Positions 7,415-37,446 of a stretch of DNA of 45,982 nt are shown here, one piece after another; within the stretch, counting starts at the first letter, position 1; every line of letters begins with the position of its first letter. Below the pieces are notes generated by a model. It worked only from the letters and a program-made list of their open reading frames with translations. It did not search any database and was not told where the DNA came from. The translations under genes and the position numbers were made by a program. Source of the DNA: a virus. The stretch lies in the UHGV virus genome UHGV-0170246; one strand, written 5' to 3'.

Positions 7415-7644
7415 AACTACATTCTTACCCAACTGAGGTGAATAGTCCACTATTCATATAAAAAAATTTAGCTCATTAGCTCATGCAAAATGAAGGTTTT
7501 TAACTTATTTACGTGTAATCTCATGTAATAAAAGCGTTTTTTATTCCTTCATTATGAAGGGTATGACGTGTAATATGGCTTGGGGCCTTTCCGCCGATTC
7601 GCACCCGGGCACTGACTTTCAGGAAAGGATTATCCACTTGCCGT

Positions 7645-7664
7645 ACCACGCAGGCACAAACAGC
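7645..7664. repeat. Direct repeat copy 2 (ACCACGCAGGCACAAACAGC)
   Basis: See copy 1. Confidence 0.6.
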
Positions 7665-7728
7665 GTGCTTGCTCTCGCGTCATTTTCGTCGGTGGGGATG
7701 CCGTGAAACGGCCTGTAAGGGCCACACA

Positions 7729-7851
7729 ATGAAAAAATACTACATGTGTATTTTTATCGTTGTTACTGGAGCTTTGTTTACGCCACATGGGGAGGGTTGG
7801 AAGATTACTGATAACGCTCTGAATGTGACGATAAACATTAGCAGCAAGTAG
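7729..7851 (+). CDS. Possible small hydrophobic peptide (40 aa)
   Basis: In-frame ATG of ORF 7669-7851; one predicted transmembrane stretch (YYMCIFIVVTGALF); followed at once by a strong terminator; no recognisable family. Confidence 0.2.
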   Translation: MKKYYMCIFIVVTGALFTPHGEGWKITDNALNVTINISSK

Positions 7852-7856
7852 CGATT

Positions 7857-7880
7857 AGGCCCCTTCGGGGGCCTTTTTTA
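7857..7880 (+). terminator. Rho-independent terminator
   Basis: 7-bp stem AGGCCCC/GGGGCCT with TTCG tetraloop followed by TTTTTT. Confidence 0.75.
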
Positions 7881-8537: not shown

Positions 8538-8570
8538 TTATATAAATCTATAAAACTATAATTATATATT
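8538..8570. repeat. AT-rich motif locus (TATAAATCTATAAAACTATAATTATATATT) downstream of parG
   Basis: Member of the dispersed TATAATTATATA(AAT) motif family. Confidence 0.55.
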
Positions 8571-9237
8571 ACGCGGCAGTAGTCAGAGCCTCAAGCTGGT
8601 TGATAATCCCCTGAATAACGTCGTCTGCCTTTTTGCGTGGCGCAACGTATGAGCATTCAATGAGGCTTAAGCCCTTATCCTGAGCTTTGCTCAGAGCTGG
8701 CTTGTGGGGAATGTACTTATCGACAACAAAGTATGGCGTATTAGCCAGGTACTCTTGGGCTTCAATATAGTCAGCTTCATTTTCAGCCGCGCCGGAAAAC
8801 ACCATGCAAATTTTCTTGATTGGCACACCCTTTTTAACGATGCCGTGAGCAGTGTTAACGGTGGTTTCCAGGTCATCGGTAGAGAATCGGGTTGGCAAAA
8901 TAACCATATCCAGAAATTCAGATAGCTTCGGTACTGATTCAGATGCGTAGGCACCGCCATCAACGATAACCAGGTCGTATACTTCTGATTCGATGATTTT
9001 CTGGACTTGTGATGGTGTGCCGCACGGCTGCGCCGCGATTGCTGGTTCGATATTGTTGGCCATTCTGCGTTGTACCCAACGCGTTACCGTTCCGTTAAGC
9101 ACATCCATATCGATCAGGCATACATTCCAGCCAGCCTTTGCATAAGCAACTGCTAAAGCACGGGCAATTGTTGATTTGGTTACGCCGCCTTTTCCGTTGA
9201 AAATACCTACAGAGATAGTCATTTGTCGAGACTCCAT
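8569..9237 (-). CDS. parA: ParA-family partition ATPase (small type Ib ParA/ParF-like)
   Basis: 222 aa; deviant Walker A GKGGVTKST near the N-terminus; followed by a small RHH protein gene. Confidence 0.8.
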   Translation of the reverse strand: MESRQMTISVGIFNGKGGVTKSTIARALAVAYAKAGWNVCLIDMDVLNGTVTRWVQRRMANNIEPAIAAQPCGTPSQVQKIIESEVYDLVIVDGGAYASESVPKLSEFLDMVILPTRFSTDDLETTVNTAHGIVKKGVPIKKICMVFSGAAENEADYIEAQEYLANTPYFVVDKYIPHKPALSKAQDKGLSLIECSYVAPRKKADDVIQGIINQLEALTTAA

Positions 9238-16282: not shown

Positions 16283-16648
16283 ATGGCACTGACGAAAAAA
16301 CAACGTGCAGAGCTGCGCATGAAGTTCGGCGGTCGCTGTGCTTATTGTGGCTGTGAACTTGGCGAAAAGTGGCATGCAGACCATGTAAAACCGGTCATTC
16401 GTTTTGCTGGAAATATGCTTCACCAGGAACGTGACGATATATCCAACATGGTTCCGGCATGCCACCCATGCAATCTGCACAAGCATTGCAGCAGCCTGGA
16501 AGATTATCGGCGAATTATCAGTGATGGTCGTCGTGAATTCCTTGCGTCCGGGAAAGGCAAAGCGCTGGTTCGTATGGGATTGGTTGAAATGAAATCTGAC
16601 CCGGTTGTGTTCTGGTTTGAAAAATATCAAGAAGGGGCTACGGCATGA
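16283..16648 (+). CDS. HNH endonuclease
   Basis: AAGGAGAG RBS before ATG 16283; CAYCGC..HADHVKP..CHPCNLHKH is a classic HNH Zn-finger layout. Confidence 0.7.
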   Translation: MALTKKQRAELRMKFGGRCAYCGCELGEKWHADHVKPVIRFAGNMLHQERDDISNMVPACHPCNLHKHCSSLEDYRRIISDGRREFLASGKGKALVRMGLVEMKSDPVVFWFEKYQEGATA

Positions 16649-17157
16649 CCACTATTACCAGAGAACAAGCTCTGAAAATTATTGAGGCAGCCGATGAGGT
16701 TATTAGTGCGCTTGCCGGAACTAACGAGGATGTTCACCTTGGTAGCGATAACATGCTACGTCTGTGGGATGACCTGAATGACCGTTACGCGCCGCCAGAA
16801 GTTGTGCGCGAACTGGCACGGATTGCACTGGCATCGCTGGAAGCGGAGCCTGTAGCGTGGCGATATCGCTACGTGAAAAAAGGCGTTACGGACTCTCAGG
16901 GGGAGCCGTGGGTTGGTGACTGGAAATATGTACCGACAAAAGAGGATTGCAACGACAGGCCGAACTATGAAATTCAGGCGTTATTCACGGCCCAGCCTGT
17001 GCCACTGACACCAGAAGGATTGATTAAAGCAGTGCGTTTCTATGAACAGGTAAAGCGTGAGAATCCGCCAGTCGAAACCGGAGCATGGAAAGACGCTGTT
17101 GATTGGGTACTCAAAGAGGCTTGCCAGGCTGTAAACATTGGTACCAAAGGAGATTGA
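16645..17157 (+). CDS. Hypothetical protein sharing an IALASLEAEPVAW motif with the next gene
   Basis: 170-aa ORF; ATGA overlap with the HNH gene. Confidence 0.45.
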   Translation: MTTITREQALKIIEAADEVISALAGTNEDVHLGSDNMLRLWDDLNDRYAPPEVVRELARIALASLEAEPVAWRYRYVKKGVTDSQGEPWVGDWKYVPTKEDCNDRPNYEIQALFTAQPVPLTPEGLIKAVRFYEQVKRENPPVETGAWKDAVDWVLKEACQAVNIGTKGD

Positions 17158-17158
17158 T

Positions 17159-17566
17159 ATGAGCACTTTTACCGACAAAGAAATGATTAAAGAAATCAAA
17201 GAGCGCATAGGCAGCCTGGACGTGAGAGACAATATTGAGCGCCGTGCTTATGAAATTGCTCTGGCATCGCTGGAAGCAGAGCCGGTAGCGTGGGAATGCG
17301 GTGAAAACATAATCCTGTTTAACCCTGACACAGTTGAAGCATACGCAAAACGTGCGGAAATATCACCTAAACCTCTATTCTCCGCGCCGCCAACGGCGGT
17401 AGTGCCGGATGATGGGCGCGAAAAGTTCGAAGCACTTGTCAGGTTTCATGCGGGTGATAAAAACCATGAAACATTATTGCTTCGTGCCAACGAAGGGATG
17501 AATTACCAAGACCCGAATGTTGATCTGGCGTGGATATTCTGGAAGTCCAGTCGTGAACATATATAA
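17159..17566 (+). CDS. Hypothetical protein, motif paralogue of the upstream gene
   Basis: AAGGAG RBS before ATG 17159; contains IALASLEAEPVAW. Confidence 0.45.
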   Translation: MSTFTDKEMIKEIKERIGSLDVRDNIERRAYEIALASLEAEPVAWECGENIILFNPDTVEAYAKRAEISPKPLFSAPPTAVVPDDGREKFEALVRFHAGDKNHETLLLRANEGMNYQDPNVDLAWIFWKSSREHI

Positions 17567-17908
17567 GCTGTAGTGAGAAGCCATGCGCTTACGAGCAGTA
17601 TTCAGATATTCAGAGCGGGTAATGAAGCACATACAACCGAAAACATGGCAGAAACTGGACTTTATGGGAGTTAAGTTGGAGAAGATTACTCAACTTAAGC
17701 AGTGGCATATTGGCGAATATTATGGAAGTCCTGGTCGGGATGTTCGTTTGGTAAAAAGTTGAGTATTGTTTTTTTATTGATCAATTAACCACAGAGTGAA
17801 GGTTTTTTTATGGGAAAGCCTTGTTTTAGGTGGTAACTGGGTGTAGTGTTTCATTTAACGTAGTAAAACTGCGTTAAGCGATTACCGCGTAATTTGTTGC
17901 TTTATGAA

Positions 17909-17939
17909 GCCCTGCCTTTTTCGGCGGGGCTTTTTTTTT
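17909..17939 (+). terminator. Rho-independent terminator just upstream of the lysis cassette
   Basis: 8-bp stem GCCCTGCC/GGCGGGGC (one G-U pair) followed by nine T. Confidence 0.7.
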
Positions 17940-17952
17940 AACGAGGATTTCA

Positions 17953-18348
17953 ATGTCAGCAGAACCAATTTCCGGTACGGCCGTTGCTGCTGGTGGCCTG
18001 ATGGGTGCCAGCGTTTTTGGTATTGCAACTGGTATTGATTACGGCGTTGTATTCGGGGCATTTGCTGGCGCTGTTTTCTATGTTGCTACAGCGGTGAATA
18101 TTAGCCGTCTCAAGCTGATTGGCTATTTCTTTACATCGTTCATTGTTGGAGTGATTGGAGCGCCGTTAGTTGGCTCATTTCTTGCCAAATGGACCAGCTA
18201 CAACGATCGTCCTCTGGATGCGCTTGGTGCGGTTATTGTGGCTGCATTGACCATTAAAATCCTCACGTTCGTAAACAGCCAGGATCTCGGTAGCATCTTT
18301 GGAATGCTTTCTCGCTTACGTGGAGGGGGTTCAAATGGTAAGCAGTGA
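17953..18348 (+). CDS. Putative holin
   Basis: 131 aa with several hydrophobic Gly/Ala-rich transmembrane segments; first gene of the lysis cluster. Confidence 0.55.
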   Translation: MSAEPISGTAVAAGGLMGASVFGIATGIDYGVVFGAFAGAVFYVATAVNISRLKLIGYFFTSFIVGVIGAPLVGSFLAKWTSYNDRPLDALGAVIVAALTIKILTFVNSQDLGSIFGMLSRLRGGGSNGKQ

Positions 18349-18631
18349 CCCGTCAGCACTGATTAATGCGGTGCTTTGCACAGTAATAGTAATGGCGCTG
18401 ATGCTTTATCGACGGAAAGACTCCAGGCATCGTCCATTTGTTTCCTTTCTGGCTTATATCTACGTCATTGTATACGCCAATGTTCCCTTCCGTTATGTGT
18501 TCGGTCTTTATCAAGAATCCCACTGGCTGGTGGTTATTGGAAATCTGATTATCTGCATCGTTGTTCTGTATTTCAGGGGCAATCTGGCGCGGATAGTTGA
18601 CGCATTAGGGTTTAATCATGACCAAAGATGA
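18335..18631 (+). CDS. Putative membrane protein (second holin or antiholin candidate)
   Basis: Internal ATG of ORF 18299-18631; two or three hydrophobic segments. Confidence 0.4.
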   Translation: MVSSDPSALINAVLCTVIVMALMLYRRKDSRHRPFVSFLAYIYVIVYANVPFRYVFGLYQESHWLVVIGNLIICIVVLYFRGNLARIVDALGFNHDQR

Positions 18632-19160
18632 GATTTTTAACAGCGTTCTTGGAAAAGAGGGCGGCTATGTGGATCACCCTGACGACAAGGGAGGCCCAAC
18701 AAAGTGGGGCATTACTCAGAACACTGCCCGTGCTCATGGATACCGTGGCGATATGCGCGATTTAACTCGCGAACAGGCTCTGGAAATCCTTGAGGCTGAT
18801 TACTGGTACGGCCCACGTTTTGACCAGATAGCAACTCTGTCGCCGGATATTGCCGCAGAACTGTGCGACACGGGCGTCAACATGGGGCCAACAGTGGCGT
18901 CAAAAATGCTTCAACGCTGGCTGAATGTGTTCAACCTGCGTGGGAAGCTGTATCCCGATTTGGATGCAGACGGACGAATCGGTCCACGTACCATTAATGC
19001 GCTGCGTGCTTATCTTGGGAATCGGGGAAAAGACGGCGAACGGGTGATGCTGACGTCGCTGAACTGTACGCAGGGCGAACGCTATCTGGAGTTGGCGGAG
19101 AAGCGCGAGGCTAATGAGTCGTTTGTCTACGGCTGGATGAAAGAGCGAGTGGTGGTATGA
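18618..19160 (+). CDS. Endolysin (GH108-like N-terminal domain with C-terminal peptidoglycan-binding domain)
   Basis: 180 aa; EGGYVDHPDDKGGPTKWGIT motif characteristic of GH108 lysozymes (recalled). Confidence 0.8.
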   Translation: MTKDEIFNSVLGKEGGYVDHPDDKGGPTKWGITQNTARAHGYRGDMRDLTREQALEILEADYWYGPRFDQIATLSPDIAAELCDTGVNMGPTVASKMLQRWLNVFNLRGKLYPDLDADGRIGPRTINALRAYLGNRGKDGERVMLTSLNCTQGERYLELAEKREANESFVYGWMKERVVV

Positions 19161-19435
19161 CTGGTTTGAAGGCCGTTTTGTCATTTATTGGCACAATTAT
19201 ATTGGTTGCATTTGGCGCGTTTGGTTTTGGTCGTATGAAGGGGCGAGAAAAGGCCGAAGATGAAGCTGAAAAGCAGCGCATTAATGAGAATGCAGCCGCC
19301 GTAAAAGCCACTGCGGAGCGGCGTATAGAAGTGACAAAAGAGGTGGGGAATGTACAGCAGAGTGTTAACCATATGGCTGATGACGATGTTGATCGCGAGC
19401 TGCGGGAGTCGTGGAAGCGTCCCGGTGGTGGTTGA
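19157..19435 (+). CDS. Putative i-spanin (Rz-like)
   Basis: 92 aa; N-terminal transmembrane segment then charged coiled region; follows the endolysin with ATGA overlap. Confidence 0.5.
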   Translation: MTGLKAVLSFIGTIILVAFGAFGFGRMKGREKAEDEAEKQRINENAAAVKATAERRIEVTKEVGNVQQSVNHMADDDVDRELRESWKRPGGG

Positions 19436-19559
19436 TACCGCCTGTGATTGGGTAAAGCCCATCTACCTGACTGATCACGACATCGATGTTATGGACCGAC
19501 AGACAAAGAAAGATATTCTGGCTCATAACAGGGCATGGGAAATCAACTGTCCAAAGTAA
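19350..19559 (+). CDS. Putative o-spanin lipoprotein (Rz1-like), overlapping the i-spanin gene in another frame
   Basis: 69 aa; signal peptide with lipobox LIASC. Confidence 0.5.
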   Translation: MYSRVLTIWLMTMLIASCGSRGSVPVVVDTACDWVKPIYLTDHDIDVMDRQTKKDILAHNRAWEINCPK

Positions 19560-19594
19560 TATATATTTCTATAATTATATAAATATATAGTTAC
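19558..19594. repeat. AT-rich motif locus (ATATATTTCTATAATTATATAAATATATAG)
   Basis: Contains the CTATAATTATATAAAT core shared with the par-flanking repeats. Confidence 0.5.
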
Positions 19595-19728
19595 AACATT
19601 CTATGCGCTTTTCTCATGGGCGCACGCATCAACCATGTTTGTCTGATATGCCGCCGCGCCCAAAAATCCTGAATTTATTGGCTGGGATTTTCGTGCGCGG
19701 CGCCACACCAGACAAACAAATCAAATAT

Positions 19729-19804
19729 GGCCCCTTAGCTCAGTGGTTAGAGCAGGCGACTCATAATCGCACGGTCATCGGTTCAAATCCGGTAGGGGCC
19801 ACCA
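19729..19804 (+). tRNA. tRNA with anticodon CAU (Met, or Ile2 if lysidine-modified)
   Basis: Hand-folded cloverleaf: 7-bp acceptor stem GGCCCCT/AGGGGCC, D arm, anticodon loop CTCATAA, T arm GGTTCAAATCC, encoded CCA; strongly resembles E. coli ileX as I recall it. Confidence 0.85.
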
Positions 19805-20111
19805 ATTCACTCTCACACATAAAGATAAGCGCGGTGGAGTTACTTCTTCGTGCTCATCTTTATGCGTGCCTGGTGCGCATTTCGGGCGAACGTGGGGCTA
19901 AGTTACAGGCAGGGCCTGTTATCCGCAAAGGGGTAAAAGCTGGAGCGGCACGGAACTGTAGCCGTGTTACCAAAACAGCGTTGTCGGGCGATATCCGGCA
20001 CACAACAGGCAAGGGCATTAATCAGTCTGGTTAGTGCCCTTTTCGTTGTGTTTGCTGTAGAGCTGGCCAGCGTTATGACTGCCGGAGATAAGCGCCGGAG
20101 GCACAATTAAC

Positions 20112-20699
20112 ATGGAGGCAATTGCATTGTTTAATCTGATTTATGCAGATCCCCCCTGGGAATACAAAGACAAGTGTAAGGATGGGAATCGTGGAGCTGG
20201 TTTTAAGTATCCAACGATGAAAGCTGAGGAGATTGCTCGTATTCCTGTCTGGCAGCTTGCTAATCCTGAATCGTGTTTGTTGGCCATGTGGTGGGTTCCG
20301 ACTCAGCCAGAAGAAGCGTTGCTGGTGGTTAAAGCATGGGGATTCAGGCTGATGACCATGAAGGGCTTCACATGGAACAAATGTGGTAGCCGACAACCAG
20401 ATAAGCTGGTGATGGGGATGGGGCATATGACTCGTGCAAACAGTGAAGATTGCTTGTTTGCGGTAAAAGGCAAACTGCCGACCCGTCTTGATGCGGGGAT
20501 CATTCAGTCGTTTACATCGCCTCGTCTGGAGCATTCTCGGAAGCCTGATGTGGTCCGTGACAAGCTGGTAAAGCTGTTAGGTGATGTTCCTCGTATTGAG
20601 CTGTTTGCTCGCGGTGATTTACCTGATGGCTGGCATGGCTGGGGCAACCAGTGCAATGGAGGTATCCAGTTGCATGATGCTCTCTGGCAAGTGGCATAG
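20112..20699 (+). CDS. MT-A70 family N6-adenine DNA methyltransferase
   Basis: 195 aa; DPPW catalytic motif (YADPPWEY) near the N-terminus. Confidence 0.8.
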   Translation: MEAIALFNLIYADPPWEYKDKCKDGNRGAGFKYPTMKAEEIARIPVWQLANPESCLLAMWWVPTQPEEALLVVKAWGFRLMTMKGFTWNKCGSRQPDKLVMGMGHMTRANSEDCLFAVKGKLPTRLDAGIIQSFTSPRLEHSRKPDVVRDKLVKLLGDVPRIELFARGDLPDGWHGWGNQCNGGIQLHDALWQVA

Positions 20700-20812
20700 A
20701 ATTATATAATTATAGATTTATATAAAAAGTGCTTTACAGGTGGGAAAAAAATTTCCTAAGGTTATACCCGAAACCGAGCGATACCCGCCCTGGTTAAACC
20801 GGAGATAACCCG
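20695..20812 (+). repeat. Conserved promoter/leader cassette, copy C (TTTACA at 20733-20738)
   Basis: Near-identical to cassettes A and B; ends at ATG 20813. Confidence 0.7.
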
Positions 20813-21082
20813 ATGAAAGTACAAGACCGTGAAGTAGTAAAAAACCTCCTGCAATACCTGACCTCAAAAAACCTGACGGGCAGCGTTGAGTTCCGTGAAG
20901 CGTTAAAACATTTCAACGTCACTACGGTTTATCGTTGGGAAAACGAACATTCTGAAAGACCGTATGTGGTGGATGTTTTTGCGCCTGATATTGAGTGCGG
21001 TTTTGAGCGTCATTCGTTCAAGGAGAAACATTCCGCTGATGTTTTTTGTGAGGTTGTATGTGCGGCAGGAGATGATGAGTGA
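20813..21082 (+). CDS. Hypothetical protein, first gene after cassette C
   Basis: 89-aa ORF with GGAG RBS in the conserved leader. Confidence 0.45.
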   Translation: MKVQDREVVKNLLQYLTSKNLTGSVEFREALKHFNVTTVYRWENEHSERPYVVDVFAPDIECGFERHSFKEKHSADVFCEVVCAAGDDE

Positions 21083-21279
21083 TGCGTATTTCCTTCAAAC
21101 GTGCGACTGAGCAGCAACGCAAAGAGTTCCTGGCTGATGATGTAGCGGCCGTTTATGACCTCATGAAAGAGGTTGTGGAATCAGGGAACTACACGGCGGC
21201 AAAGATGCTTAAACTGCAATTCTTGCTGGGCGACCTGAAATACAAATCCGAAGTTGTCGCCGGACGACGCGAGCATTAA
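21079..21279 (+). CDS. Hypothetical protein
   Basis: 66-aa ORF with ATGA overlap; followed by a terminator. Confidence 0.4.
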   Translation: MMRISFKRATEQQRKEFLADDVAAVYDLMKEVVESGNYTAAKMLKLQFLLGDLKYKSEVVAGRREH

Positions 21280-21302
21280 ACCGTAACGATAACGAACAAC
21301 GA

Positions 21303-21329
21303 GCCTCGGCAATTGCCGGGGCTTTTTTA
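21303..21329 (+). terminator. Rho-independent terminator
   Basis: Hairpin around the CCGGCAATTGCCGG palindrome followed by TTTTTT. Confidence 0.65.
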
Positions 21330-21353
21330 CATCCAGACAAAGGAGAACATGGG

Positions 21354-21809
21354 ATGCCTTCGACAAGCACCAAAAAAGAAATGGCGATTAGTGATGTGCT
21401 TTACGCGCTTTCGATTATGTGTGACGGAGCAATGATGAGGATGAAAGTCCTCCATGAAGCATACGGAAAAAGTCACGACGAGGCAGCCAAAGAGTGCCTG
21501 AATGAGATTGTGGACTTCATTGATAGCCATCGGTCGCTGATAGCTCTCGATAACCAGCCTCAAGCCGAAGAATGCCAGAAGCGCGAGTATAAAACGATAT
21601 ATGGGAATAAGTTCTCCTGTCTAAGCGAGTTGGCTGCAAAGGTGGCCGACATTCTGGAGAACAACGGCGGTCGAATGCGTCAGGTTAGCTATCAGTCTGA
21701 ATATGAAGCTCTAATCATGTTAGTTGATCAGTTAGTTGATACCGGAGCTTTACAGCTCAACTGCGTAAGGCTATCTGGTCATCCGATAAAAATGAATGGA
21801 AGGATATAA
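21354..21809 (+). CDS. Hypothetical protein
   Basis: 151-aa ORF. Confidence 0.45.
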   Translation: MPSTSTKKEMAISDVLYALSIMCDGAMMRMKVLHEAYGKSHDEAAKECLNEIVDFIDSHRSLIALDNQPQAEECQKREYKTIYGNKFSCLSELAAKVADILENNGGRMRQVSYQSEYEALIMLVDQLVDTGALQLNCVRLSGHPIKMNGRI

Positions 21810-21811
21810 CC

Positions 21812-22018
21812 GTGGACTTGCCGAGTGATTTGTTCTGGTTTCCGCTTCCAATAAGAGATTTGTTGGTATTTCTGGCTGGGGCTTACGTCTGGAGAAAAGC
21901 GAAAGACACCTCGTTATCTTTGAGGTTTGTCTTAGCTATATCGGTAGGAACCGCGCTGGGGACGGCGTATCTCTTGACATTACTGGAGATATTCATTGAA
22001 GAATGGATAGTTTCATGA
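21812..22018 (+). CDS. Small membrane protein
   Basis: 68-aa ORF with two hydrophobic stretches. Confidence 0.35.
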   Translation: MDLPSDLFWFPLPIRDLLVFLAGAYVWRKAKDTSLSLRFVLAISVGTALGTAYLLTLLEIFIEEWIVS

Positions 22019-22167
22019 ATGGTGTTGGCATTTTTCTGATGGTTGTGGCCGTGTGTTTTTGTATCTCGCTGGTGGTTATCGCTGGTGTCCTGTGGCGCAT
22101 CTTAGTGGCGCAGAGAGCTTTTCGGCGTAAGCGGGAGCAATTGCGCCTTGATTTCTATCGAAAGTAA
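22015..22167 (+). CDS. Small membrane peptide (50 aa; not in the supplied ORF track)
   Basis: Hand-translated as MNGVGIFLMVVAVCFCISLVVIAGVLWRILVAQRAFRRKREQLRLDFYRK; ATGA overlap with the upstream gene; stop TAA at 22165-22167. Confidence 0.3.
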   Translation: MNGVGIFLMVVAVCFCISLVVIAGVLWRILVAQRAFRRKREQLRLDFYRK

Positions 22168-22216
22168 CTCTTACAGCCTCGCGGTGTCGCGGGGCTTTTT
22201 ATTTTCAGGTGATGTT

Positions 22217-22627
22217 ATGGAAAAGAAAGAAGATAAACCGATTGCCATTGGTGCAGAGTCTGTTCCGTTTAAGTTTGAATTATCCCAACTGGTAACAATG
22301 CGTATCAGTGACGAATGGGGAGAAGTTCAAGCCCGTGCTCAGTATGCAAATGGCGAAAACCAGTATCTGATTCACTATCAGGCGGCTGATGGCCGTGCTA
22401 CCACAGAGTGGTTCGGTGAGTCGATGCTGATTGCGATGGAGGATAAACGTCATCCTGGCTGCCCTGTTTTTGCCTGTATTGATTTGCCAGAAGGCGCGGT
22501 ACTTGAAGACGACGAAGAAGAATGCTCATCTGATGGCGAACTTGTCATTACCGGAATCGTTGATGGTAAGCCGGAATACTCTCGTATTGAGGTAAATAAC
22601 GGCTGCCTCCGTTTGATCCCTGCGTAA
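22217..22627 (+). CDS. Hypothetical acidic protein
   Basis: Internal ATG of ORF 22148-22627 preceded by AGGTGA. Confidence 0.4.
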   Translation: MEKKEDKPIAIGAESVPFKFELSQLVTMRISDEWGEVQARAQYANGENQYLIHYQAADGRATTEWFGESMLIAMEDKRHPGCPVFACIDLPEGAVLEDDEEECSSDGELVITGIVDGKPEYSRIEVNNGCLRLIPA

Positions 22628-22861
22628 CGCATTACAGCAGCTCTTGTGCCTATCAGGGGCTGCGATAATGCGCAAACCAAAGCTGCCTCATTAACTCCAG
22701 CTCGCTGTGGAGTTAATGCTGGTGGCTTTTTTATTACTGGAAGGTGGGCGACCGCCGTCAGTTGCGACCTGACGACAGTCATTCATACCCACAGGGTGCC
22801 GTGGATACAAACCGAGGCCCACTTGCTTGCACAAGCGAGGGGATTTTAGCGGATAAACGGC

Positions 22862-23533
22862 ATGACAAAACATCTTAATGTGGTTTCTTTACCACTTTCT
22901 GTGTTGATTGGTTATGAAAAGAACGCTCGCACACACTCCGTGGAGCAGGTAGATCAGATTGTTGCCAGCATACAGGAGTACGGATGGACTAATCCGATCC
23001 TGATAGACGAGAACAACGTTGTAATTGCTGGTCATGGTCGAATTGTTGCGGCCACTCAGTTGGGGATGGATGACGTTCCCTGCATTGTTCTGGAAGGGCT
23101 AACGGAGAATCAGAAGAAGGCATATCGTCTGGCCGACAACCGTATTCCGCTGAATGCTGGTTGGGATGAAGAGTTGTTAAGCGCGGAACTTGCAGATCTT
23201 GCGGCCGATGATTTTGCTCTGGACTCAATTGGTTTTACTCAGCGCGAACTGGATAACTTATTGAGTGCGGCGGTCTACGATGACACAGAGGGTATGGATA
23301 TCCCATTTGAGAAGGATGAGGCCAAATCAGGCGTAAAAGTTCAGTACCTGTCATTTGGAGGTCATAAAATCCCAGCAACGGATGGGAAGCGGATCGTTTT
23401 GACTGCGCGGTATCTCGTTATGTTGATGATAATGGCAGCTATATCGGATTTGTATCCGCATTGCTGGCTGGGGAGGTGTGCTGATGCTTCATCTCAATTA
23501 CGACATAACGCACCTACGCGGCGCGGAATATAA
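22862..23533 (+). CDS. ParB-like nuclease domain protein (paralogue 1)
   Basis: 223 aa; ParB/Srx motif AGHGR; about 55% identical by eye to the protein at 26151-26741 over the N-terminal ~130 aa. Confidence 0.7.
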   Translation: MTKHLNVVSLPLSVLIGYEKNARTHSVEQVDQIVASIQEYGWTNPILIDENNVVIAGHGRIVAATQLGMDDVPCIVLEGLTENQKKAYRLADNRIPLNAGWDEELLSAELADLAADDFALDSIGFTQRELDNLLSAAVYDDTEGMDIPFEKDEAKSGVKVQYLSFGGHKIPATDGKRIVLTARYLVMLMIMAAISDLYPHCWLGRCADASSQLRHNAPTRRGI

Positions 23534-24857
23534 CCCGCGTTTTATCGGTGAGGATGATCTTGCGAGGCTGGCGGAAAGCGTCAGGGAGCTGGGGCTTGTG
23601 AAGCCATTGATAGTGCGCGGCGATTTGCTGGTGGCGGGACACCAAAGGACGAAGGCGCTACGTAAGTTGGGAATAACGCGTGCTGCGGTGTATGTGTTGC
23701 CCTGTGAAACGACGGTATACGACGAAGTACGGTTTAACCAACTGCATAACGGAACGGATTTTGACAGCGGAGATGAGCGTTGCAGGGTGTCAGGTCTGGA
23801 AGATAAGCATGGTTTTGTTCAGGTATCGGCAAGCCAGATCTCAGGCAATATGCGCGCGAAAATGGCATATGTTCGAAAGAACATAGCGGAACTGGTTATC
23901 AAGTATGGGCCGTGGGGTGGTTGTGTTGCTACTCAGTCTGGTGAGGTTATTCACTGTGCTCAGTATGCATTAGCAGCGAAGATGACGCGCACACCGCTAA
24001 CGGTGTTTGTGATCCCTGATGTTGAGAAGGAAAAATACCAAAGTTATCTGAATAAAACTTATGGTGTATTTGAGTATTCTCACCTGGAGAAAACAACATA
24101 CATCCAGACGTATGCGCAGCTTATGCGGTTGCGTAATGGTGGCAGCCTGAAATCAAACCTGTATGAGTCGTTGATCCTCCCGATCATTGCCAAGACGCCA
24201 AGAGGAATTGATTTTGGTTCGGGGCAGGGAGACTACGCGCGAATGCTCAGGGCAAAGGGATATAACCTGCATGATCTAGAGCTTTTCCGCCGTAAGGGCG
24301 CTGGAAACACTCTGGATAGGACTGCAACAAACCGGATGATTGATACGCTGGTGGACGACTTAAAAACGCGAGGGCGTTACGACTACGTGATTTGCGATAG
24401 CGTTTTGAACTCGGTCGATAGTGTCGAGGCTGAATGGTCCGTTCTAACGGTTCTGAAAGGCCTGTGTAAAGCTGGTGGGTCAATATTCTTTTCTGGTCGT
24501 AGCCGTGGAGAGCTGGAAACAGTCCTGAAGCAAACACAAGCGGCGAGTTCCAAAAGCCGGCTTTATTTTATTGATCATAACGGTTTTACCGCGTTGTACC
24601 GGAAGGGGCACTGGTTTTACCAGAAGTTTCACTCTGATGATGAAGTGAAGCAGTTGTGTCGTGTACATGGTTTCAGGATTAAGCGGTCAATATTCAACTG
24701 TAAGAGCTGGTATTTGCACGTCATTAACGATGATTCCCTTAGTTGGGCGAGTCTGGAGAAAGCTGTTCGTTTTGAGTTTGAGTTGCCGTTGCCTGGTGGT
24801 TCAACAATCGGACGATCTGATGATGTGCTGGCGGCTTTCCGGCCGTTGATTAAGTAG
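23484..24857 (+). CDS. ParB-like N-terminal domain fused to a class I SAM-dependent methyltransferase-like domain
   Basis: GGGAGG RBS before ATG 23484; N-terminus LLVAGHQRTKALRKLG is ParB-like; C-terminal region has motif I IDFGSGQG, acidic post-I, hhhhD (YDYVICD) and GG motif; no DPPY-type motif seen. Confidence 0.55.
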   Translation: MLHLNYDITHLRGAEYNPRFIGEDDLARLAESVRELGLVKPLIVRGDLLVAGHQRTKALRKLGITRAAVYVLPCETTVYDEVRFNQLHNGTDFDSGDERCRVSGLEDKHGFVQVSASQISGNMRAKMAYVRKNIAELVIKYGPWGGCVATQSGEVIHCAQYALAAKMTRTPLTVFVIPDVEKEKYQSYLNKTYGVFEYSHLEKTTYIQTYAQLMRLRNGGSLKSNLYESLILPIIAKTPRGIDFGSGQGDYARMLRAKGYNLHDLELFRRKGAGNTLDRTATNRMIDTLVDDLKTRGRYDYVICDSVLNSVDSVEAEWSVLTVLKGLCKAGGSIFFSGRSRGELETVLKQTQAASSKSRLYFIDHNGFTALYRKGHWFYQKFHSDDEVKQLCRVHGFRIKRSIFNCKSWYLHVINDDSLSWASLEKAVRFEFELPLPGGSTIGRSDDVLAAFRPLIK

Positions 24858-24873
24858 TCTGTAGGAGGCGCTG

Positions 24874-25593
24874 GTGGCTGACAGAATTGAGATAAAGATT
24901 GATTTTTCTTCTCAGGATATTCAACGACAACTCCAGCGCCTTGAAGAACGCGAATTGCCGTTCGCAATGGCGCTTGCGGCAACCAGAACGGCAAAGGCTT
25001 CTCAGGCTGCGATTAAGAATGAAATTAATCGGGTATTTGACAGGCCCACGCCGTGGATTCAGAACTCTACTTACGTTTTGGCCGCAAAGAAGAGTGATCC
25101 TACAGCCATTGTGTATGCTCGTGAATGGGGAGGAACGCCAGCCCCTGTAACGTTGACTCCGCAAATCGAAGGTGGCCAACGACAGTACAAACGCTCAGAA
25201 GGGGCGCTAAGGGCTGGTGGATATTTGCCTAACGGCTGGCAGCTTGCTCCTGGTCCCGGCGCAAAGCTGGACAAATACGGGAATATTTCGCGGGGGCAAT
25301 TACAGCAGGTCTTATCTGGCCTAAGAGTTCAGCGAGATGTGCATCAAAATCGCCGTCAGGGCAAGCCTACGGAGTTTTTTGTTGTTCGACCTGGTACAAG
25401 TAACCCGCTTCAACCAGGCGTCTGGCAGCGCGTTGGGCGGCGTCCTACGTTGATCCTTACGTTTATCCAGCAACCTAACTATTCGCAGCGTCTTGATTGG
25501 CATGGCGTGGCGCTGCGTGCTGGTGAGGATGCGTTTGCTGATGAAGTCACAAAGGCTATTGATGACATTCTTTCTAAGACCTTCTCTCGTTAA
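24874..25593 (+). CDS. Hypothetical protein (239 aa) between ParB-domain genes
   Basis: GTG start with AGGAGG RBS; family not recognised. Confidence 0.45.
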   Translation: MADRIEIKIDFSSQDIQRQLQRLEERELPFAMALAATRTAKASQAAIKNEINRVFDRPTPWIQNSTYVLAAKKSDPTAIVYAREWGGTPAPVTLTPQIEGGQRQYKRSEGALRAGGYLPNGWQLAPGPGAKLDKYGNISRGQLQQVLSGLRVQRDVHQNRRQGKPTEFFVVRPGTSNPLQPGVWQRVGRRPTLILTFIQQPNYSQRLDWHGVALRAGEDAFADEVTKAIDDILSKTFSR

Positions 25594-25599
25594 TCATCG

Positions 25600-26150
25600 T
25601 GTGGTTGATGGTGTTGTTATGCAGAGTGTATTCACTGTGTTCTGTAGTGTCGCTCGCTGGCTGTCTGTGGGGGAGCACGAGCATCGTTTCATCGTCCGGC
25701 AGAATTGGGTCCTTCTGGCCAAAAGCGTTGGATGCGGGTCATTCGAACCCCGATGTTCGGCTAGCTAAACGTGAAAAAAGTTAGGTTAAAAGTTTCGGTA
25801 AAAGAAATTTACTCATCTCATTGAAAAACATCGGGAAAACGTGATTTTTTGCTGTGCTTGTGATGGTGAAAAGAAAGTAGAGAATTTTCTTTTAGATCAT
25901 CAAGATACGCGCAGATCTTTAACCAATGTAAGGCTGTTTTGATAAAAATCGTTATAAATCATGCAAATACATCCAATCTTTTAACCAAAACACCATATCA
26001 AGATCCTTTTTACTTATAAAAACTTAATAAAATCAGATGATTATTCTGGTTTGTGTGATTTTTTATGAGTAAAAAGATCGTCATTTTTCTCTTTTAGTAT
26101 CAATAAGTTAAACAGTTTTCTTTAACCTGTTGTGTTATGGCGGTTAAAAA
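25600..26150. promoter_or_regulatory. ORF-free AT-rich intergenic region with three copies of (A)TCTTTAACC; candidate late promoter and/or packaging (cos/pac) region
   Basis: Repeats at about 25916-25930, 25973-25990 and 26113-26125; lies upstream of the ParB-like and terminase genes. Confidence 0.3.
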
Positions 26151-26741
26151 ATGGCTCTAAAAATCGAATATTTACCAGTCGGTAAGCTGCTCAGATACGC
26201 CAAAAATTCACGGACTCATTCAGATGAGCAAGTTGAACAGTTGGTGAACAGTATCCGTGAGTTCGGTTTCACTAATCCTGTGCTGATCGATGAAAAGAAT
26301 GAACTGATTGCGGGGCATGGGCGGCTTGCAGCAGCCGAAATTCTGGAAATGGATAAAGTTCCAGCGATTCGGTTGAGTAACCTTTCTGAAAAACAGAAGA
26401 AGGCTTACAGGATTGCAGATAACAAGCTGGCCTTAAATGCTGGCTGGGATATGCAGCTTCTGGCCGAAGAAGTCAAAGCGTTAATGGATGATGATTTTGA
26501 TATTGATCTGCTTGGGTTTAATGATGCAGAGCTTGACGAAATGTTAAGCGATGAACAGCCGCAGGAAGAAGACGATAATTCTTCCCCTGTTGTTCAAATT
26601 AAGTACCTGGCTATTGATAAAGAACGTATTCCCGCGACGGATATGGAAATTGCATTGTTGCTGGATGTTTATCGTCAGTACCACGACGCGCATGAAACGC
26701 ATGAGGGATTTGTTCAGTATCTTGCTAATGGTTGCAAGTAA
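26151..26741 (+). CDS. ParB-like nuclease domain protein (paralogue 2)
   Basis: 196 aa; AGHGR motif; paralogue of 22862-23533. Confidence 0.7.
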   Translation: MALKIEYLPVGKLLRYAKNSRTHSDEQVEQLVNSIREFGFTNPVLIDEKNELIAGHGRLAAAEILEMDKVPAIRLSNLSEKQKKAYRIADNKLALNAGWDMQLLAEEVKALMDDDFDIDLLGFNDAELDEMLSDEQPQEEDDNSSPVVQIKYLAIDKERIPATDMEIALLLDVYRQYHDAHETHEGFVQYLANGCK

Positions 26742-27292
26742 TGGCCATCGTCAGTAAGTCAGAGTTTGCCCGCCGAAAAGGTATTTCTCCGGCAATGGTT
26801 ACGAAGCTCTGTCGTTCCGGTCGCATTCCAGTGCTGAAAAGCGGCAAGCTGGATTTTGATAAAGCTAGTGCGGCTTATGAAGCGAGCCGACAGGTTGGTC
26901 GTGAGGTATCTGCTGAAAATGGAAAAAGAGGGCATGGGATATCTTCGGAACAACCAGAGTTACCCGCTGATGATGCCGGATTAGCTGGTGGTACTTCCGG
27001 TGTTGCGGTGCAATTCAACAAGGCTAAGACCGCAGAAAAAATTTATCAGGCAAAGCTGAAACGCCTTGAATTTGAAGAAAAGGAAGGCTCTCTCATCGCT
27101 AAAGATGCGGTCAGGGATGATGCATTTCTGGCAGCTAATGAATTGCGTAGCCGCTTATTTAGTATTGCTCCAAGAGCAGCTCCCCGTTGTGAAGGCAAAA
27201 CAGCCAGGGAGATCGAACGCATTATTGAAGACGAGATTAATTTTGCGCTTCAGGCGCTCCAGGAATCCCGATTTATTAAGCAGGAAGAATAA
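26741..27292 (+). CDS. Terminase small subunit (Nu1-like)
   Basis: ATG overlapping the upstream stop (TAATG); N-terminal HTH-like SKSEFARRKGISPAMVTK; immediately precedes the large subunit. Confidence 0.6.
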   Translation: MAIVSKSEFARRKGISPAMVTKLCRSGRIPVLKSGKLDFDKASAAYEASRQVGREVSAENGKRGHGISSEQPELPADDAGLAGGTSGVAVQFNKAKTAEKIYQAKLKRLEFEEKEGSLIAKDAVRDDAFLAANELRSRLFSIAPRAAPRCEGKTAREIERIIEDEINFALQALQESRFIKQEE

Positions 27293-27297
27293 ACCTC

Positions 27298-29154
27298 ATG
27301 GGCGAAACAGTATGGAGCACCGCTTTTTTCCGTGCGCTTCGCCCTAAATCACGGCTAACTGTTTCCGAATGGGCTGATAAGTATCGTCATGTAGCGCCGG
27401 GAACGTCTCCAGAGCCAGGGCCGTGGCGTACAAGCCGAGTGCCATATTTGCGTGAACCAATGGATGTTATTGGTGACGCTGATACAGAAACAGTAGTGAT
27501 GCAATGTAGCTCGCAAATTGGTAAATCCGAATTACAGCTAAATGTTATGGGTTACTTTGCAGATCAGGAGCCATCTCCTCAGTTGATGATTTATCCAACG
27601 GTAGAGGCGGCTGAGGCTTTTTCAAAAGAGCGTATTGATCCGACGTTCAAATATTCCCCTGGTTTGAAACACAAGCTGCATGAAGGGAAAGAGGGGCGCG
27701 GTGCAGCCAAAAAGTCCAGCACGACTATACGTATGAAGCATTACGCTGGTGGATATATAGCACTTGTTGGTGCTAATTCCCCAGCAGGTCTTGCATCCAG
27801 GCCAATTCGAATACTGTTAGCTGATGAGATTGATCGTTACGGTGTGACGCAGGAGGGCGACCCACTAAAACTAGGTATTCAGCGTACTACCAACTTTCAT
27901 AATCGTAAGAAAGTTTTTGTTTCTACTCCTGTTTTGGAGGAAACGAGCAAAATCCACAAGTGGTTTAAGCTCTCCGATCAGCGTTACTACCATGTTCCTT
28001 GCCCATGTTGTGGCACCATGCAGGTGATGAAATGGTCGCAAGTCAGATGGGATAAGAGCGATTCAGGTGAGGCGTTACCGGAAACGGCCAGATATGAGTG
28101 CTGTGAGTGCGGCGGGATTATGCGCGGATCTGGTAAACCAGACGTTGATTGGTTGGCGAAGGGGGTATGGATAGCTGAACATACTGGAATTAAAGGTATT
28201 GTTGGTTTTCATATTAACAGTCTTTACTCCCCGTGGGTTGCATTGTCAGAGCTGGTTGAAGAGTTTACGGAAGCAACCAGAAACCGCGATAAAAATGGAT
28301 TAATGGAGTTTATTAACCTTAAGCTGGGTGAGCCATGGAAAGAGGATGCTAAAGACGATATCGATCCTGAATACTTGTTGCAACGCAGAATAAGGTTTGA
28401 AGAGTTTTTACCAGATGATGTTTTATTGTTAAGTGCTGGTGTTGACGTACAGGACACGTATTTAGTTTGTGAATTGGTCGGTTGGGGAAAAGGTAAGGAG
28501 TCATGGGGGATAGAATATAAAATATTCCCAGGTGATCCCGCACAAGATGTTGTCTGGAAACAACTTGATGAATACTTACTCCGTAGCTGGTCATTCCGTG
28601 ACGGTAGAAAATTACAGATTTCTTCCGTTTGTATTGACTCTGGTGGGCATTTTACGACAGAGGTATATCGCTTTACTAAGCCGAGAGAATCAAGGCGAAT
28701 ATACTCTATCAGGGGGCGTGGTGGGGTAGGTTTACCATTTATAGGAAAGCCAAGTAATAATAACCGTGTGGGTGCTATGTTGTTTAATTTGGGGGTTGAT
28801 GATGGTAAAGGGACCATCATGGCAAGAATTAAACTACATGATCCTGGTCCTGGTTATATGCATTTCCCATTAGATTCTGACAGAGGATATGATACCGAAT
28901 ACTTTAAAGGATTATTATCAGAGAAAAAAATATTTGAATATAAAAATGGGCAGACAAAAGAAAAGTGGGTGAAAGTCTACGAGCGTAACGAGCCTCTTGA
29001 TTGCCGTAACTATGCAACTGCCGCGATGGAAATTCTGAACCCTAATTTTAACTGGCTTGCCGAACAGGAAATGCGAGGTAATGTGTATGTGCAGAACTCG
29101 TCAGGTATACGTAGAAGACGCCGTAGAGTTATAAGTAAAGGCGTAACCATATAG
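27298..29154 (+). CDS. Terminase large subunit (lambda GpA family)
   Basis: 618 aa; N-terminal GpA-like pattern with P-loop CSSQIGKSE. Confidence 0.85.
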   Translation: MGETVWSTAFFRALRPKSRLTVSEWADKYRHVAPGTSPEPGPWRTSRVPYLREPMDVIGDADTETVVMQCSSQIGKSELQLNVMGYFADQEPSPQLMIYPTVEAAEAFSKERIDPTFKYSPGLKHKLHEGKEGRGAAKKSSTTIRMKHYAGGYIALVGANSPAGLASRPIRILLADEIDRYGVTQEGDPLKLGIQRTTNFHNRKKVFVSTPVLEETSKIHKWFKLSDQRYYHVPCPCCGTMQVMKWSQVRWDKSDSGEALPETARYECCECGGIMRGSGKPDVDWLAKGVWIAEHTGIKGIVGFHINSLYSPWVALSELVEEFTEATRNRDKNGLMEFINLKLGEPWKEDAKDDIDPEYLLQRRIRFEEFLPDDVLLLSAGVDVQDTYLVCELVGWGKGKESWGIEYKIFPGDPAQDVVWKQLDEYLLRSWSFRDGRKLQISSVCIDSGGHFTTEVYRFTKPRESRRIYSIRGRGGVGLPFIGKPSNNNRVGAMLFNLGVDDGKGTIMARIKLHDPGPGYMHFPLDSDRGYDTEYFKGLLSEKKIFEYKNGQTKEKWVKVYERNEPLDCRNYATAAMEILNPNFNWLAEQEMRGNVYVQNSSGIRRRRRRVISKGVTI

Positions 29155-29165
29155 AGGAAATATAA

Positions 29166-29405
29166 ATGAACAATGAAGCATTTTCTCTGACTGAAGCCAG
29201 AGAGATGTTATCTGTCTGGCGGGAAGCATATCGCGCTATTGCTATTGGCGGTCAGTCATATAAATTTGGTACGCGGCAGTTAACTCGTGCGGATTTATCA
29301 GAAGTCAGAAAAGAGATGGATTACTGGCGTAATGAAGTAGAAAGATTATCAGCAGGTATACGCCGAGGCCCACGAATTAAACGAGTGGTGATAAGAGATT
29401 TATGA
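29166..29405 (+). CDS. Head-tail joining protein (lambda gpW-like)
   Basis: 79 aa between terminase and portal, as in lambda. Confidence 0.5.
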   Translation: MNNEAFSLTEAREMLSVWREAYRAIAIGGQSYKFGTRQLTRADLSEVRKEMDYWRNEVERLSAGIRRGPRIKRVVIRDL

Positions 29406-30976
29406 ATATTCTTGATCGAGTTATTGCGCCGTTTTCACCTCAGAGGGCATTAAATCGAGCTTTGGCAAGAAAACGGTTAGAAGCACTTGAAGGTATTAAT
29501 AACCTTGGATATTCACGTCATGGTGCAAGCACTCATAAAAAATCATTAAGGGGTTGGTTTAGTAAAGCTGGTTCTCCTGATGATGATATTGTTAAAAATA
29601 TAGATAAATTGCGTGAGCGTTCTCGTGATCTCTTCATGGGAAACCCGCTATCGGTTGGCGCAATAAAAACTATCAGGACAAACGTTGTTGGTTCCGGTTT
29701 AAAACTAAATGCGAACATTGATGCCGATTTCTTGGGGATGACGCAGGAAGAAGCGCGAGCATGGGAAAAGCATGTTGAGCGTGAGTTTAGATTATGGGCT
29801 GATTCTCCAAATTGTGATGCATCAAGAATGTGTACTTTTGGACAATTGCAATCATTGGTCCAAATATCTGCGTTAACATCTGGCGATATATTTGCTGCGC
29901 TACCAGTTATTAAGCGTAAGGGTGTTATATATGATTTGTGCGTCTATTTAATTGAAGGTGATCGTGTTTGCAATCCAGAGGATCGTTTTATACCAAATCT
30001 TTACGGTGGCGTAGAGGTTGGTGAATTTAGCGAGCCTGTGGCGTACTGGGTTGCAAAACATCACCCAGCCGGGACTTCTGGTTTTGTAACCCGCAAGTGG
30101 GAACGTATTCCCGCATATGGGAGTAAAACAGGAAGAAGAAATATTCTGCATGTCATGCAGGATTTTGAAAGGCCTGGGCAACGCCGTGGCGTTCCTGTCC
30201 TTGCTCCTGTAATTGAAGCATTGAAGCAGTTAGGACGATACACCGATGCTGAATTGGTTGCTGCGGTTGTGTCAGGGATGTTTACTGTCTTTATTAAAAC
30301 AGACGCTCCTGATGGACCAGTCGGTGAATCGGGTATCCCTCAGTACGAGCAGATCGATAACCATGATGATAACACCCAAGAAATGGGGAATGGCTCCATA
30401 GTAAGTTTGGGTGAAGGTGAGTCGATAGATACAGCAAATCCCGGGCGACCAAATACGGCATTTGATGGTTTTGTTGTCGCCATATGCCGTCAAATTGGGG
30501 CTGCTTTAGAACTCCCTTACGAACTCTTGGTAAAGCATTTTACAGCAAGTTATAGCGCTAGCAGGGCCGCATTACTTGAAGCCTGGAAAATGTTCCGTAT
30601 GCGACGTGACTGGATGGTTCAGTCATTTTGCCAACCGATCTATGAGGAATGGTTGGCCGAAGCCGTTGCAAAAGGCCGTGTTATTGCCCCTGGTTTTTTT
30701 TATGGTCCTGAATATCGCGCTGCATGGAGCGGCGCCCAATGGTATGGCCCATCACAAGGCCAATTAGATCCCCTTAAAGAAGTTAAAGCTGCAAAACTGC
30801 GTGTTGAGGAAACATTCTCTACCCGTGAAAAGGAAGCGGCTGAAATGTCAGGTCTTAACTGGGAAGAAACCGCACAAATCTGTGGCAGAGAAGAGAATGC
30901 TCGCCGTGAGTTGGGGCTTATTACACCTCCTGTTTCTGAGGTAAATGAACAAAATATGGAGACTGATGATGCCTAA
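29402..30976 (+). CDS. Portal protein (lambda gpB family)
   Basis: 524 aa; position and length; ATGA overlap with the upstream gene. Confidence 0.8.
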   Translation: MNILDRVIAPFSPQRALNRALARKRLEALEGINNLGYSRHGASTHKKSLRGWFSKAGSPDDDIVKNIDKLRERSRDLFMGNPLSVGAIKTIRTNVVGSGLKLNANIDADFLGMTQEEARAWEKHVEREFRLWADSPNCDASRMCTFGQLQSLVQISALTSGDIFAALPVIKRKGVIYDLCVYLIEGDRVCNPEDRFIPNLYGGVEVGEFSEPVAYWVAKHHPAGTSGFVTRKWERIPAYGSKTGRRNILHVMQDFERPGQRRGVPVLAPVIEALKQLGRYTDAELVAAVVSGMFTVFIKTDAPDGPVGESGIPQYEQIDNHDDNTQEMGNGSIVSLGEGESIDTANPGRPNTAFDGFVVAICRQIGAALELPYELLVKHFTASYSASRAALLEAWKMFRMRRDWMVQSFCQPIYEEWLAEAVAKGRVIAPGFFYGPEYRAAWSGAQWYGPSQGQLDPLKEVKAAKLRVEETFSTREKEAAEMSGLNWEETAQICGREENARRELGLITPPVSEVNEQNMETDDA

Positions 30977-32033: not shown

Positions 32034-32042
32034 GGTGAGTTT

Positions 32043-32426: not shown

Positions 32427-32446
32427 TATAAAGAGGTCGTATTTTT

Positions 32447-36463: not shown

Positions 36464-36479
36464 ATAATAGGAGGTTGCT

Positions 36480-37001: not shown

Positions 37002-37010
37002 GGTGACAAA

Positions 37011-37441: not shown

Positions 37442-37446
37442 TACTA

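Follow-up and report, generated by a model that had tools for sequence, protein, structure and literature searches.

An ileX-like tRNA gene with a CAT anticodon in an Escherichia phage-plasmid, and the use of AUA in the late genes

Which amino acid is carried by a phage-borne tRNA whose gene spells the anticodon CAT, which codon does it read, and what might the phage gain from keeping it? These questions are raised by nucleotides 19729-19804 of UHGV virus genome UHGV-0170246, of which a stretch of 45,982 nucleotides, here called the window, was analyzed. A previous reading based on the letters alone (the sequence-only reading) had seen in this locus a tRNA resembling tRNA-Ile2, which after lysidine modification would decode AUA in AT-rich structural genes, and had considered an attachment-site role unlikely. 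That reading turned out to be essentially right. The locus is, with high confidence, a functional tRNA-Ile2 gene, and it probably raises AUA decoding for the late virion genes. It is also an ordinary feature of an already known kind, comparable to trnI of phage P1 and ileZ of phage 933W, and identical copies in RefSeq are already annotated as tRNA-Ile.

Identity of the CAT-anticodon tRNA

When the whole window was searched with ARAGORN, a single tRNA was found, on the plus strand at 19729-19804 and with the anticodon cat at position 34. Rfam likewise matched 19729-19801 to the tRNA family RF00005, well above threshold (67 bits against a gathering score of 29, E = 1.5e-12). The cloverleaf with an encoded CCA that had been read directly from the sequence was thus recovered by the tRNA predictors, with one blemish: on the standard cloverleaf, Watson-Crick or G-U pairing is seen at 20 of the 21 stem positions, the sole non-standard pair being G27/A43 at the top of the anticodon stem. 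An unconstrained minimum free energy (MFE) fold misses the D and anticodon arms, as free folds of unmodified tRNA sequences often do, and is still more stable than shuffled sequences (z = -3.1). The gene and its parts are as follows.

19729 to 19804, plus strand: tRNA gene assigned to tRNA-Ile2, genomic anticodon CAT, ileX-like, 76 nt (ARAGORN; Rfam; 68/76 to ileX; 72/76 to P1 trnI; PGAP on identical copies)
19762 to 19764, plus strand: anticodon CAT, positions 34-36 (ARAGORN), in a loop, CTCATAA, that is the same as in ileX; C34 is the presumed lysidine site for host TilS
19802 to 19804, plus strand: genome-encoded 3' CCA, read from the sequence and aligned with the CCA of ileX

As references, the Escherichia coli genes ileX (tRNA-Ile2), metT (elongator tRNA-Met) and metY (initiator tRNA) were fetched. 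The phage tRNA is identical to ileX at 68 of 76 positions with no gaps, as compared to 57 of 77 for metT and 50 of 79 for metY, so that both the closeness to ileX and the resemblance to tRNA-Ile2, which the sequence-only reading had claimed, are borne out. Acceptor stem, D arm, anticodon loop, discriminator A73 and CCA are all identical to ileX, while the eight substitutions are confined to the T stem and to positions 43, 44 and 59. Outside the latter, U43A turns the G27-U43 wobble of ileX into the G/A mismatch, and U44C and G59A are further changes. In the T stem, G49:C65 has become A:U, C50:G64 has become U:G and U51:A63 has become C:G; pairing is kept, since 49:65 and 51:63 are altered on both sides and 50:64 is U-G. 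The identity set of IleRS consists of A73, C4:G69, U12:A23, C29:G41, A37 and A38, and all of these bases are present, the same as in ileX.

The enzyme TilS converts C34 of tRNA-Ile2 to lysidine, which changes charging from methionine to isoleucine and decoding from AUG to AUA (PMC11947777, PMC8450103, PMC12514573). The major identity elements of E. coli TilS are the pairs 4:69 and 5:68 (PMC11947777); in the phage tRNA these are C4:G69 and C5:G68, as in ileX, whereas metT has U4:A69 and A5:U68. Efficient modification is nevertheless not certain, because G27/A43 replaces the G-U pair of ileX and anticodon-stem changes are able to impair E. coli TilS (PMC11947777).

PGAP gives the name tRNA-Ile to an identical 76-mer in over 50 circular E. 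coli plasmids of RefSeq, most of them 47-50 kb long. PGAP runs tRNAscan-SE. Version 2.0 of that program has a dedicated Ile2 isotype model (PMC8450103). A different label is found in the records of the Yersinia phages vB_YpM_39/41/44, where the tRNA gene (43084-43159 in OR545054.1, i.e. vB_YpM_41, and its counterparts in the sister records OR545053.1 and OR545055.1) is annotated as tRNA-Met. If this were correct, the gene would encode an elongator tRNA-Met reading AUG, a notion that agrees with the genomic CAT anticodon, with the tRNA-Met output of ARAGORN and with the established knowledge that unmodified tRNA-Ile2 is a near-cognate substrate of MetRS. Naming by anticodon alone, however, cannot separate Met from Ile2 (PMC8450103), being ambiguous because three bacterial tRNA species have a genomic CAT, and the far better match to ileX than to metT, the ileX-type pairs at 4:69 and 5:68 and the PGAP labels on identical copies all argue against it. 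A tRNA-Met is therefore highly improbable, and we consider the label in the three Yersinia phage records a mislabel from anticodon-only naming, which should be changed to tRNA-Ile2. In OR545054.1, nearly all proteins are named 'hypothetical protein', despite this being a RepA/ParA phage-plasmid.

A phage-plasmid and the relatives of its tRNA

The window covers nearly all of a myovirus-type phage, about 48 kb when whole, which persists as a plasmid in E. coli and its relatives. Its main parts are listed here in genome order.

855 to 1847, plus strand: IncFII-type RepA replication initiator (Pfam PF02387, E = 5.5e-44; repA according to PGAP in the relative L008)
8569 to 9237, minus strand: ParA partition ATPase (Pfam CbiA, ParA and MipZ; ParA family protein according to PGAP)
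17953 to 19559, plus strand: lysis cassette with two holins, a GH108 endolysin and Rz/Rz1-like spanins (PHROGs, E from 1e-32 to 1e-53)
20112 to 20699, plus strand: MT-A70 DNA methyltransferase, the first gene after the tRNA (PHROGs; Pfam PF05063; PGAP in relatives)
26151 to 45980, plus strand: packaging, head and tail late genes, AUA-rich and the presumed users of the tRNA (Pfam; PGAP in L008)
27298 to 29154, plus strand: gpA-type large terminase, within the plus-strand block

The phage functions lie in a plus-strand block that begins at about 10.7 kb and continues up to the window's end, with early, lysis, methyltransferase, packaging and structural genes, the late ones also including portal, protease, capsid, sheath, tube, tape-measure and baseplate genes. 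The maintenance and immunity functions additionally comprise a HigB/RelE-type toxin with an HTH antitoxin, an XRE repressor, and a module similar to immI of P1, in which C4 and isrK RNAs lie upstream of an ORF6N/Rha antirepressor. Both RNAs score above the Rfam threshold (C4 antisense RNA at 7033-7120 and isrK at 7145-7218, minus strand) and are situated just upstream of a small ORF and the antirepressor (5646-6979, minus strand), like c4-icd-ant in P1 immI. Another RNA above threshold is a full-length ryfA-like one at 7581-7879 on the plus strand (134.6 bits). Between the tRNA and the terminase, at 20112-26741, two genes encode DNA methyltransferases, one of the MT-A70 type (20112-20699) and one in which ParB-N is fused to a methyltransferase (23478-24857). 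ParB-like nuclease/partition domains are unusually concentrated there, with three ParB/Srx N-domain proteins at 22862-23533, 23478-24857 and 26151-26741.

Neither Pfam nor the PGAP annotation revealed an integrase in the window or the complete relative L008, and the sole recombinase of the window is a Hin-type invertase (129-683). The 381-aa ORF at 5646-6791 on the minus strand is not an integrase but the ORF6N/Rha antirepressor. The missing integrase together with the RepA/ParA plasmid lifestyle and circular relatives makes an attachment-site role unlikely, in agreement with what had been read from the sequence; we reject attP/attB membership for this tRNA gene, which is full-length, internal to the element and accompanied by no att-like partial duplicate. 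The window itself begins just before the invertase gene and ends inside a tail-fibre gene (44592-45982). Complete relatives have some 3 kb of tail-fibre and assembly genes that the window lacks, probably the invertible segment of the Hin-type invertase, and the contig probably broke at inverted repeats.

Close relatives are numerous. The segment 10000-30000 is 97-99.5% identical to dozens of circular plasmids, mostly of 46-52 kb, in E. coli, E. fergusonii and E. albertii, one of them being the plasmid of ATCC 25922, whose copy of the tRNA differs at one T-loop base. The segment 19400-20200 is 98.5-99.1% identical to vB_YpM_39/41/44. In PLSDB, 58 plasmids carry the terminase of the family and 58 carry the tRNA region. 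A widespread 47-50 kb E. coli phage-plasmid family, including the ATCC 25922 plasmid and three Yersinia pestis-infecting isolates, has its own, presumably AUA-decoding tRNA. Within the family, the tRNA (1 of 76 sites variable) did not differ significantly in conservation from its flanks (28 of 475; p = 0.16). The pSLy3 group (a relative of SSU5) and HQ103, a 32-kb Peduoviridae phage, were set aside as unrelated elements.

The nearest relatives of the tRNA itself are not host genes but ileX-like genes of other E. coli phages kept as plasmids, i.e. P1, P7 and D6. Both trnI of P1 and P7 and a homologue that is unannotated in D6 match it at 72 of 76 positions, and the copy on a 76-kb plasmid with D6-matching neighbour genes does so at 74 of 76. 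Relative to ileX, all of these have A43, C44, A49, C51, G63 and U65 in common, and with them the G27/A43 mismatch. The tRNA thus belongs, judging by these sequence comparisons, to an ileX-like lineage common to the E. coli phage-plasmids P1, P7 and D6, one of whose members is described in the GenBank record of P1 as 'tRNA-ile2 (CAT)', 89% identical to ileX. The chromosomal ileX and ileY of E. coli, which are lysidine-modified and read AUA, differ from it in location, the phage copy being borne on a plasmid or phage. Genomic contexts within the lineage also differ: trnI of P1 follows tciABC and precedes the helicase gene ban, and the D6 copy follows tciAB, whereas the present tRNA sits between the lysis cassette and the methyltransferase. 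Similarity to the P1 and D6 loci ends at the tRNA borders, with the exception of 11 nt upstream in D6. Furthermore, P1 and D6 carry tRNA-Asn and tRNA-Thr genes in addition, while the present element has this tRNA alone.

More remote is ileZ of the Shiga-toxin phage 933W, an ileX-like CAT tRNA annotated as tRNA-Ile with only 64 of 76 positions identical, which like the present gene lies in a late region near lysis genes and has a non-standard 27:43 pair (A/C). It is part of a cluster, ileZ-argN-argO, located between pR' and stx2 on an integrating lambdoid phage, and its two tRNA-Arg genes, tentatively annotated as CGG and AGG, have no counterpart in the present element, which would serve AUA decoding only.

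Two more distant relatives of the structural module lack the tRNA, namely a Salmonella salamae plasmid, whose TerL gene has 80% nucleotide identity to that of the window, and Vibrio phage X29, with 62% TerL protein identity and syntenic head and tail genes. Since these two are without it, the tRNA looks like an acquisition in the Escherichia phage-plasmid family. The head and tail module is also syntenic with those of Vibrio phages phi 2 and Rostov 7 (62-65% TerL amino acid identity for the three Vibrio phages). X29, which has no tRNAs, integrates by means of two integrase genes, and the 49-kb S. salamae plasmid (CP053324.1), likewise without the tRNA, is an intermediate relative; the structural module seems to have shifted between integrating and plasmid lifestyles.

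AUA usage and the role of the tRNA

The codons served by phage tRNAs tend to be ones that the phage overuses and its host employs only rarely (PMC4032129). Codon usage was counted in 64 phage genes of the window and in 84 annotated genes of E. coli, taken from two chromosomal stretches of 50 kb each, with the following result for AUA.

Late packaging and structural genes: 21.2 per 1000 (138 of 6524 codons), 31.8% of Ile codons
Maintenance genes: 13.1 per 1000, 19.9% of Ile codons
Early genes: 8.8 per 1000, 16.4% of Ile codons
Lysis genes: 10.3 per 1000, 15.8% of Ile codons
Genes between the tRNA and the terminase: 10.1 per 1000, 18.8% of Ile codons
E. coli sample of 84 genes: 2.3 per 1000, 4.0% of Ile codons

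All phage genes together use AUA at 16.0 per 1000, and the published genome-wide value for E. coli is 4.9 per 1000 (PMC12514573). That AUA would be frequent in the AT-rich late genes had been predicted from the letters, and both halves of this statement hold: from about 26 kb onward GC is 0.36-0.47, as compared to 0.45-0.50 upstream, and late genes exceed the E. coli sample about ninefold (odds ratio 9.2, p about 1e-52) and the remaining phage genes twofold (odds ratio 2.0, p about 2e-6). The codon is thus phage-overused and host-rare, which would place the tRNA among the codon-compensating phage tRNAs and fits the long-standing view of what such tRNAs cover. The excess of AUA belongs to a broader move towards codons ending in A or T, late-gene GC3 being 0.33. 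When the observed AUA share is divided by that expected from third-position composition, the ratio is 0.88 in late genes and 0.16 in the host; relative to composition, the host strongly avoids AUA and the late genes hardly do. Ranked by enrichment over the host, AUA comes second among late-gene codons, after AGA (11.3-fold), and AGG is at 6.4-fold. In absolute counts AUA is the commonest of these three most host-enriched codons (138, as against 80 for AGA and 29 for AGG), and with only one tRNA in the window no tRNA-Arg for AGA or AGG is carried, which sets a limit to the codon-supply reading.

The demand is unevenly distributed over the late genes, which is a second limit. In the major capsid gene (32447-33490), which encodes the most abundant virion protein, none of the 11 Ile codons is AUA, and in the tail tube gene one of 13 is, so the genes with the highest expression do not depend on the tRNA; the baseplate gene gpJ (42842-43966), on the other hand, uses AUA for 18 out of 34. 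Avoidance of AUA inside the late operon seems to track the expected expression level, despite the element having its own tRNA-Ile2. In the orthologous structural genes of the tRNA-less relatives, AUA stands at 13.5 (S. salamae plasmid) and 4.0 (X29) per 1000, as compared to 21-22 here, and GC3 at 0.44 and 0.49, as compared to 0.32; with only three lineages and GC3 as a confounder, a joint origin of the tRNA and of high AUA use in the lineage is hinted at.

On the codon-supply explanation, which we think probable, the gene would be transcribed on the plus strand, either within a long rightward transcript from lysis to structural genes or from its own weak promoter, and host RNases would excise the tRNA. 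Going by its sequence, host TilS should recognize the ileX-type acceptor stem (C4:G69, C5:G68) and the anticodon arm and convert C34 to lysidine, whereupon, as is established for tRNA-Ile2, IleRS would charge it with isoleucine and it would read AUA only. As a third tRNA-Ile2 gene copy beside host ileX and ileY, it would then add to the supply for a codon whose demand in the late genes is some nine times that in the host, and a benefit to the phage would follow. Expression on induction, i.e. in the lytic cycle, is suggested by the place of the gene in the plus-strand lytic block and by analogy with P1, where the homologue trnI follows the C1-repressed ban promoters and is assigned to their region in the annotation.

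A working tRNA-Ile2 could also be present for other reasons. It might bring no meaningful benefit, being a hitchhiker acquired through recombination with another phage-plasmid or with the host, or a relic of a former tRNA-linked attachment site, kept because the family is young. Retention indeed says little when family members are 96-100% identical and the tRNA shows no more conservation than the sequence on either side, AUA is avoided in the capsid gene, relatives without the tRNA are presumably viable, and AGA and AGG are equally rare in the host yet unsupplied. A mere passenger, on the other hand, fits less well with a full-length gene having intact stems, compensatory T-stem changes and an encoded CCA, with the independent retention of ileX-like genes in P1, P7, D6 and Stx phages in different genomic contexts, and with AUA being the second most host-enriched late-gene codon, and the absence of an integrase and of any att-like partial duplicate weighs against a relic of integration; we regard this explanation as unlikely.

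Still less credence is given to two further roles. According to recent proposals, phage tRNAs make up for host tRNAs lost to tRNA-targeting defences and to decay, and the phage copy could in that sense be an insurance against shut-off, replacing host tRNA-Ile2 lost to anticodon nucleases or host RNA decay. With low abundance and about two host genes, tRNA-Ile2 could well become limiting, but the anticodon loop is the same as that of host ileX, so a nuclease directed at the loop of the host tRNA would probably cleave the phage copy as well, the element has just one tRNA, and we know of no defence nuclease specific for tRNA-Ile2, all of which makes such a counter-defence very unlikely. Equally doubtful is lysogenic conversion, whereby the tRNA of the resident plasmid would lift host AUA decoding for AUA-rich acquired genes and for the maintenance genes of the element itself. 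The latter genes, which include those for immunity, are in fact AUA-rich relative to the host (the XRE repressor gene reaches 36.7 per 1000), the plasmid adds one gene copy to a host median of two, and a perfect TATAAT with a weak -35 box lies upstream of the tRNA. Against this stand the lack of a convincing promoter, the location in the plus-strand lytic block between lysis and packaging genes, and the P1 arrangement, which points to expression at the time of induction. AUA supply for the late genes remains our preferred reading. The scientific weight of the finding is small, and the practical gains concern the tRNA label in the records of vB_YpM_39/41/44 and a spurious ORF over the tRNA.

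Surroundings of the tRNA gene

The tRNA is embedded in a 552-nt intergenic region (19560-20111) that is strongly structured (MFE z = -5.6) and contains or borders the following elements.

19548 to 19575, plus strand: weak candidate sigma-70 promoter, TGTCCA, a 16-nt spacer and a perfect TATAAT at 19570-19575 (relaxed scan, 9/12 consensus matches)
19560 to 19589: AT-rich palindrome directly after the Rz1 stop codon
19636 to 19718, plus strand: 83-nt imperfect hairpin ending 10 nt before the tRNA, with 34-nt arms, 85% complementary (-40.3 kcal/mol, z = -6.4)
19814 to 19868, plus strand: 55-nt hairpin starting 10 nt after the tRNA, with 27-nt arms (-25.4 kcal/mol, z = -5.3)
20011 to 20041, plus strand: terminator-like hairpin 3' of the tRNA with a weak T tract (terminator scan; -19.9 kcal/mol, z = -4.8)

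A standard sigma-70 scan gave no plus-strand promoter in 17400-20300. The candidate at 19548-19575, which lies 154 nt before the tRNA, is no more than a match to the consensus, and with its weak -35 box and detection by the relaxed scan alone it is not counted as evidence. Searches of phages and plasmids returned no homologues of the flanks or of the 552-nt region outside the phage-plasmid family, the tRNA being the only part with matches there. Known RNA families in Rfam were matched by the flanks only below threshold, e.g. a rydB-like hit of 28.9 bits against a gathering score of 50, and sub-threshold matches to microRNA models on the minus strand merely reflect the hairpin.

Judging by its fold and position, the hairpin at 19636-19718 is possibly a processing or insulator element. 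Speculating further, the tRNA and the two flanking hairpins might form a processing unit in a long lytic transcript, in which RNase III-type cleavage of the hairpins together with RNase P would free the tRNA and, by the same cuts, split the lysis mRNA from the methyltransferase/packaging mRNA, the tRNA acting as 'punctuation' by which one mRNA block is made more or less stable than the other; the G27/A43 mismatch common to the phage-plasmid trnI genes might in addition tune the rate of modification by host TilS. We consider this scheme unlikely.

The tRNA is also overlapped by an ORF of 143 aa (19603-20034, plus strand), which was rejected as a gene despite a match to phrog_23857 (E = 3e-51). 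In relatives its length varies between 103 and 147 aa, a 1-nt indel occurs, one member has no start codon, and PGAP does not call it. With the frame broken in close relatives, the ORF is probably spurious, and phrog_23857 may itself have been built from miscalled ORFs over the tRNA region.

Lastly, upstream of the lysis genes, the ORFs 16645-17157 and 17138-17566 had no Pfam match, known antiterminators included. After a 386-nt gap, and 20 nt before the first holin, there is a strong intrinsic terminator (17906-17933) in which an 11-bp stem is followed by a T run, an arrangement that resembles the pR'-tR' late-gene layout of lambdoid phages.
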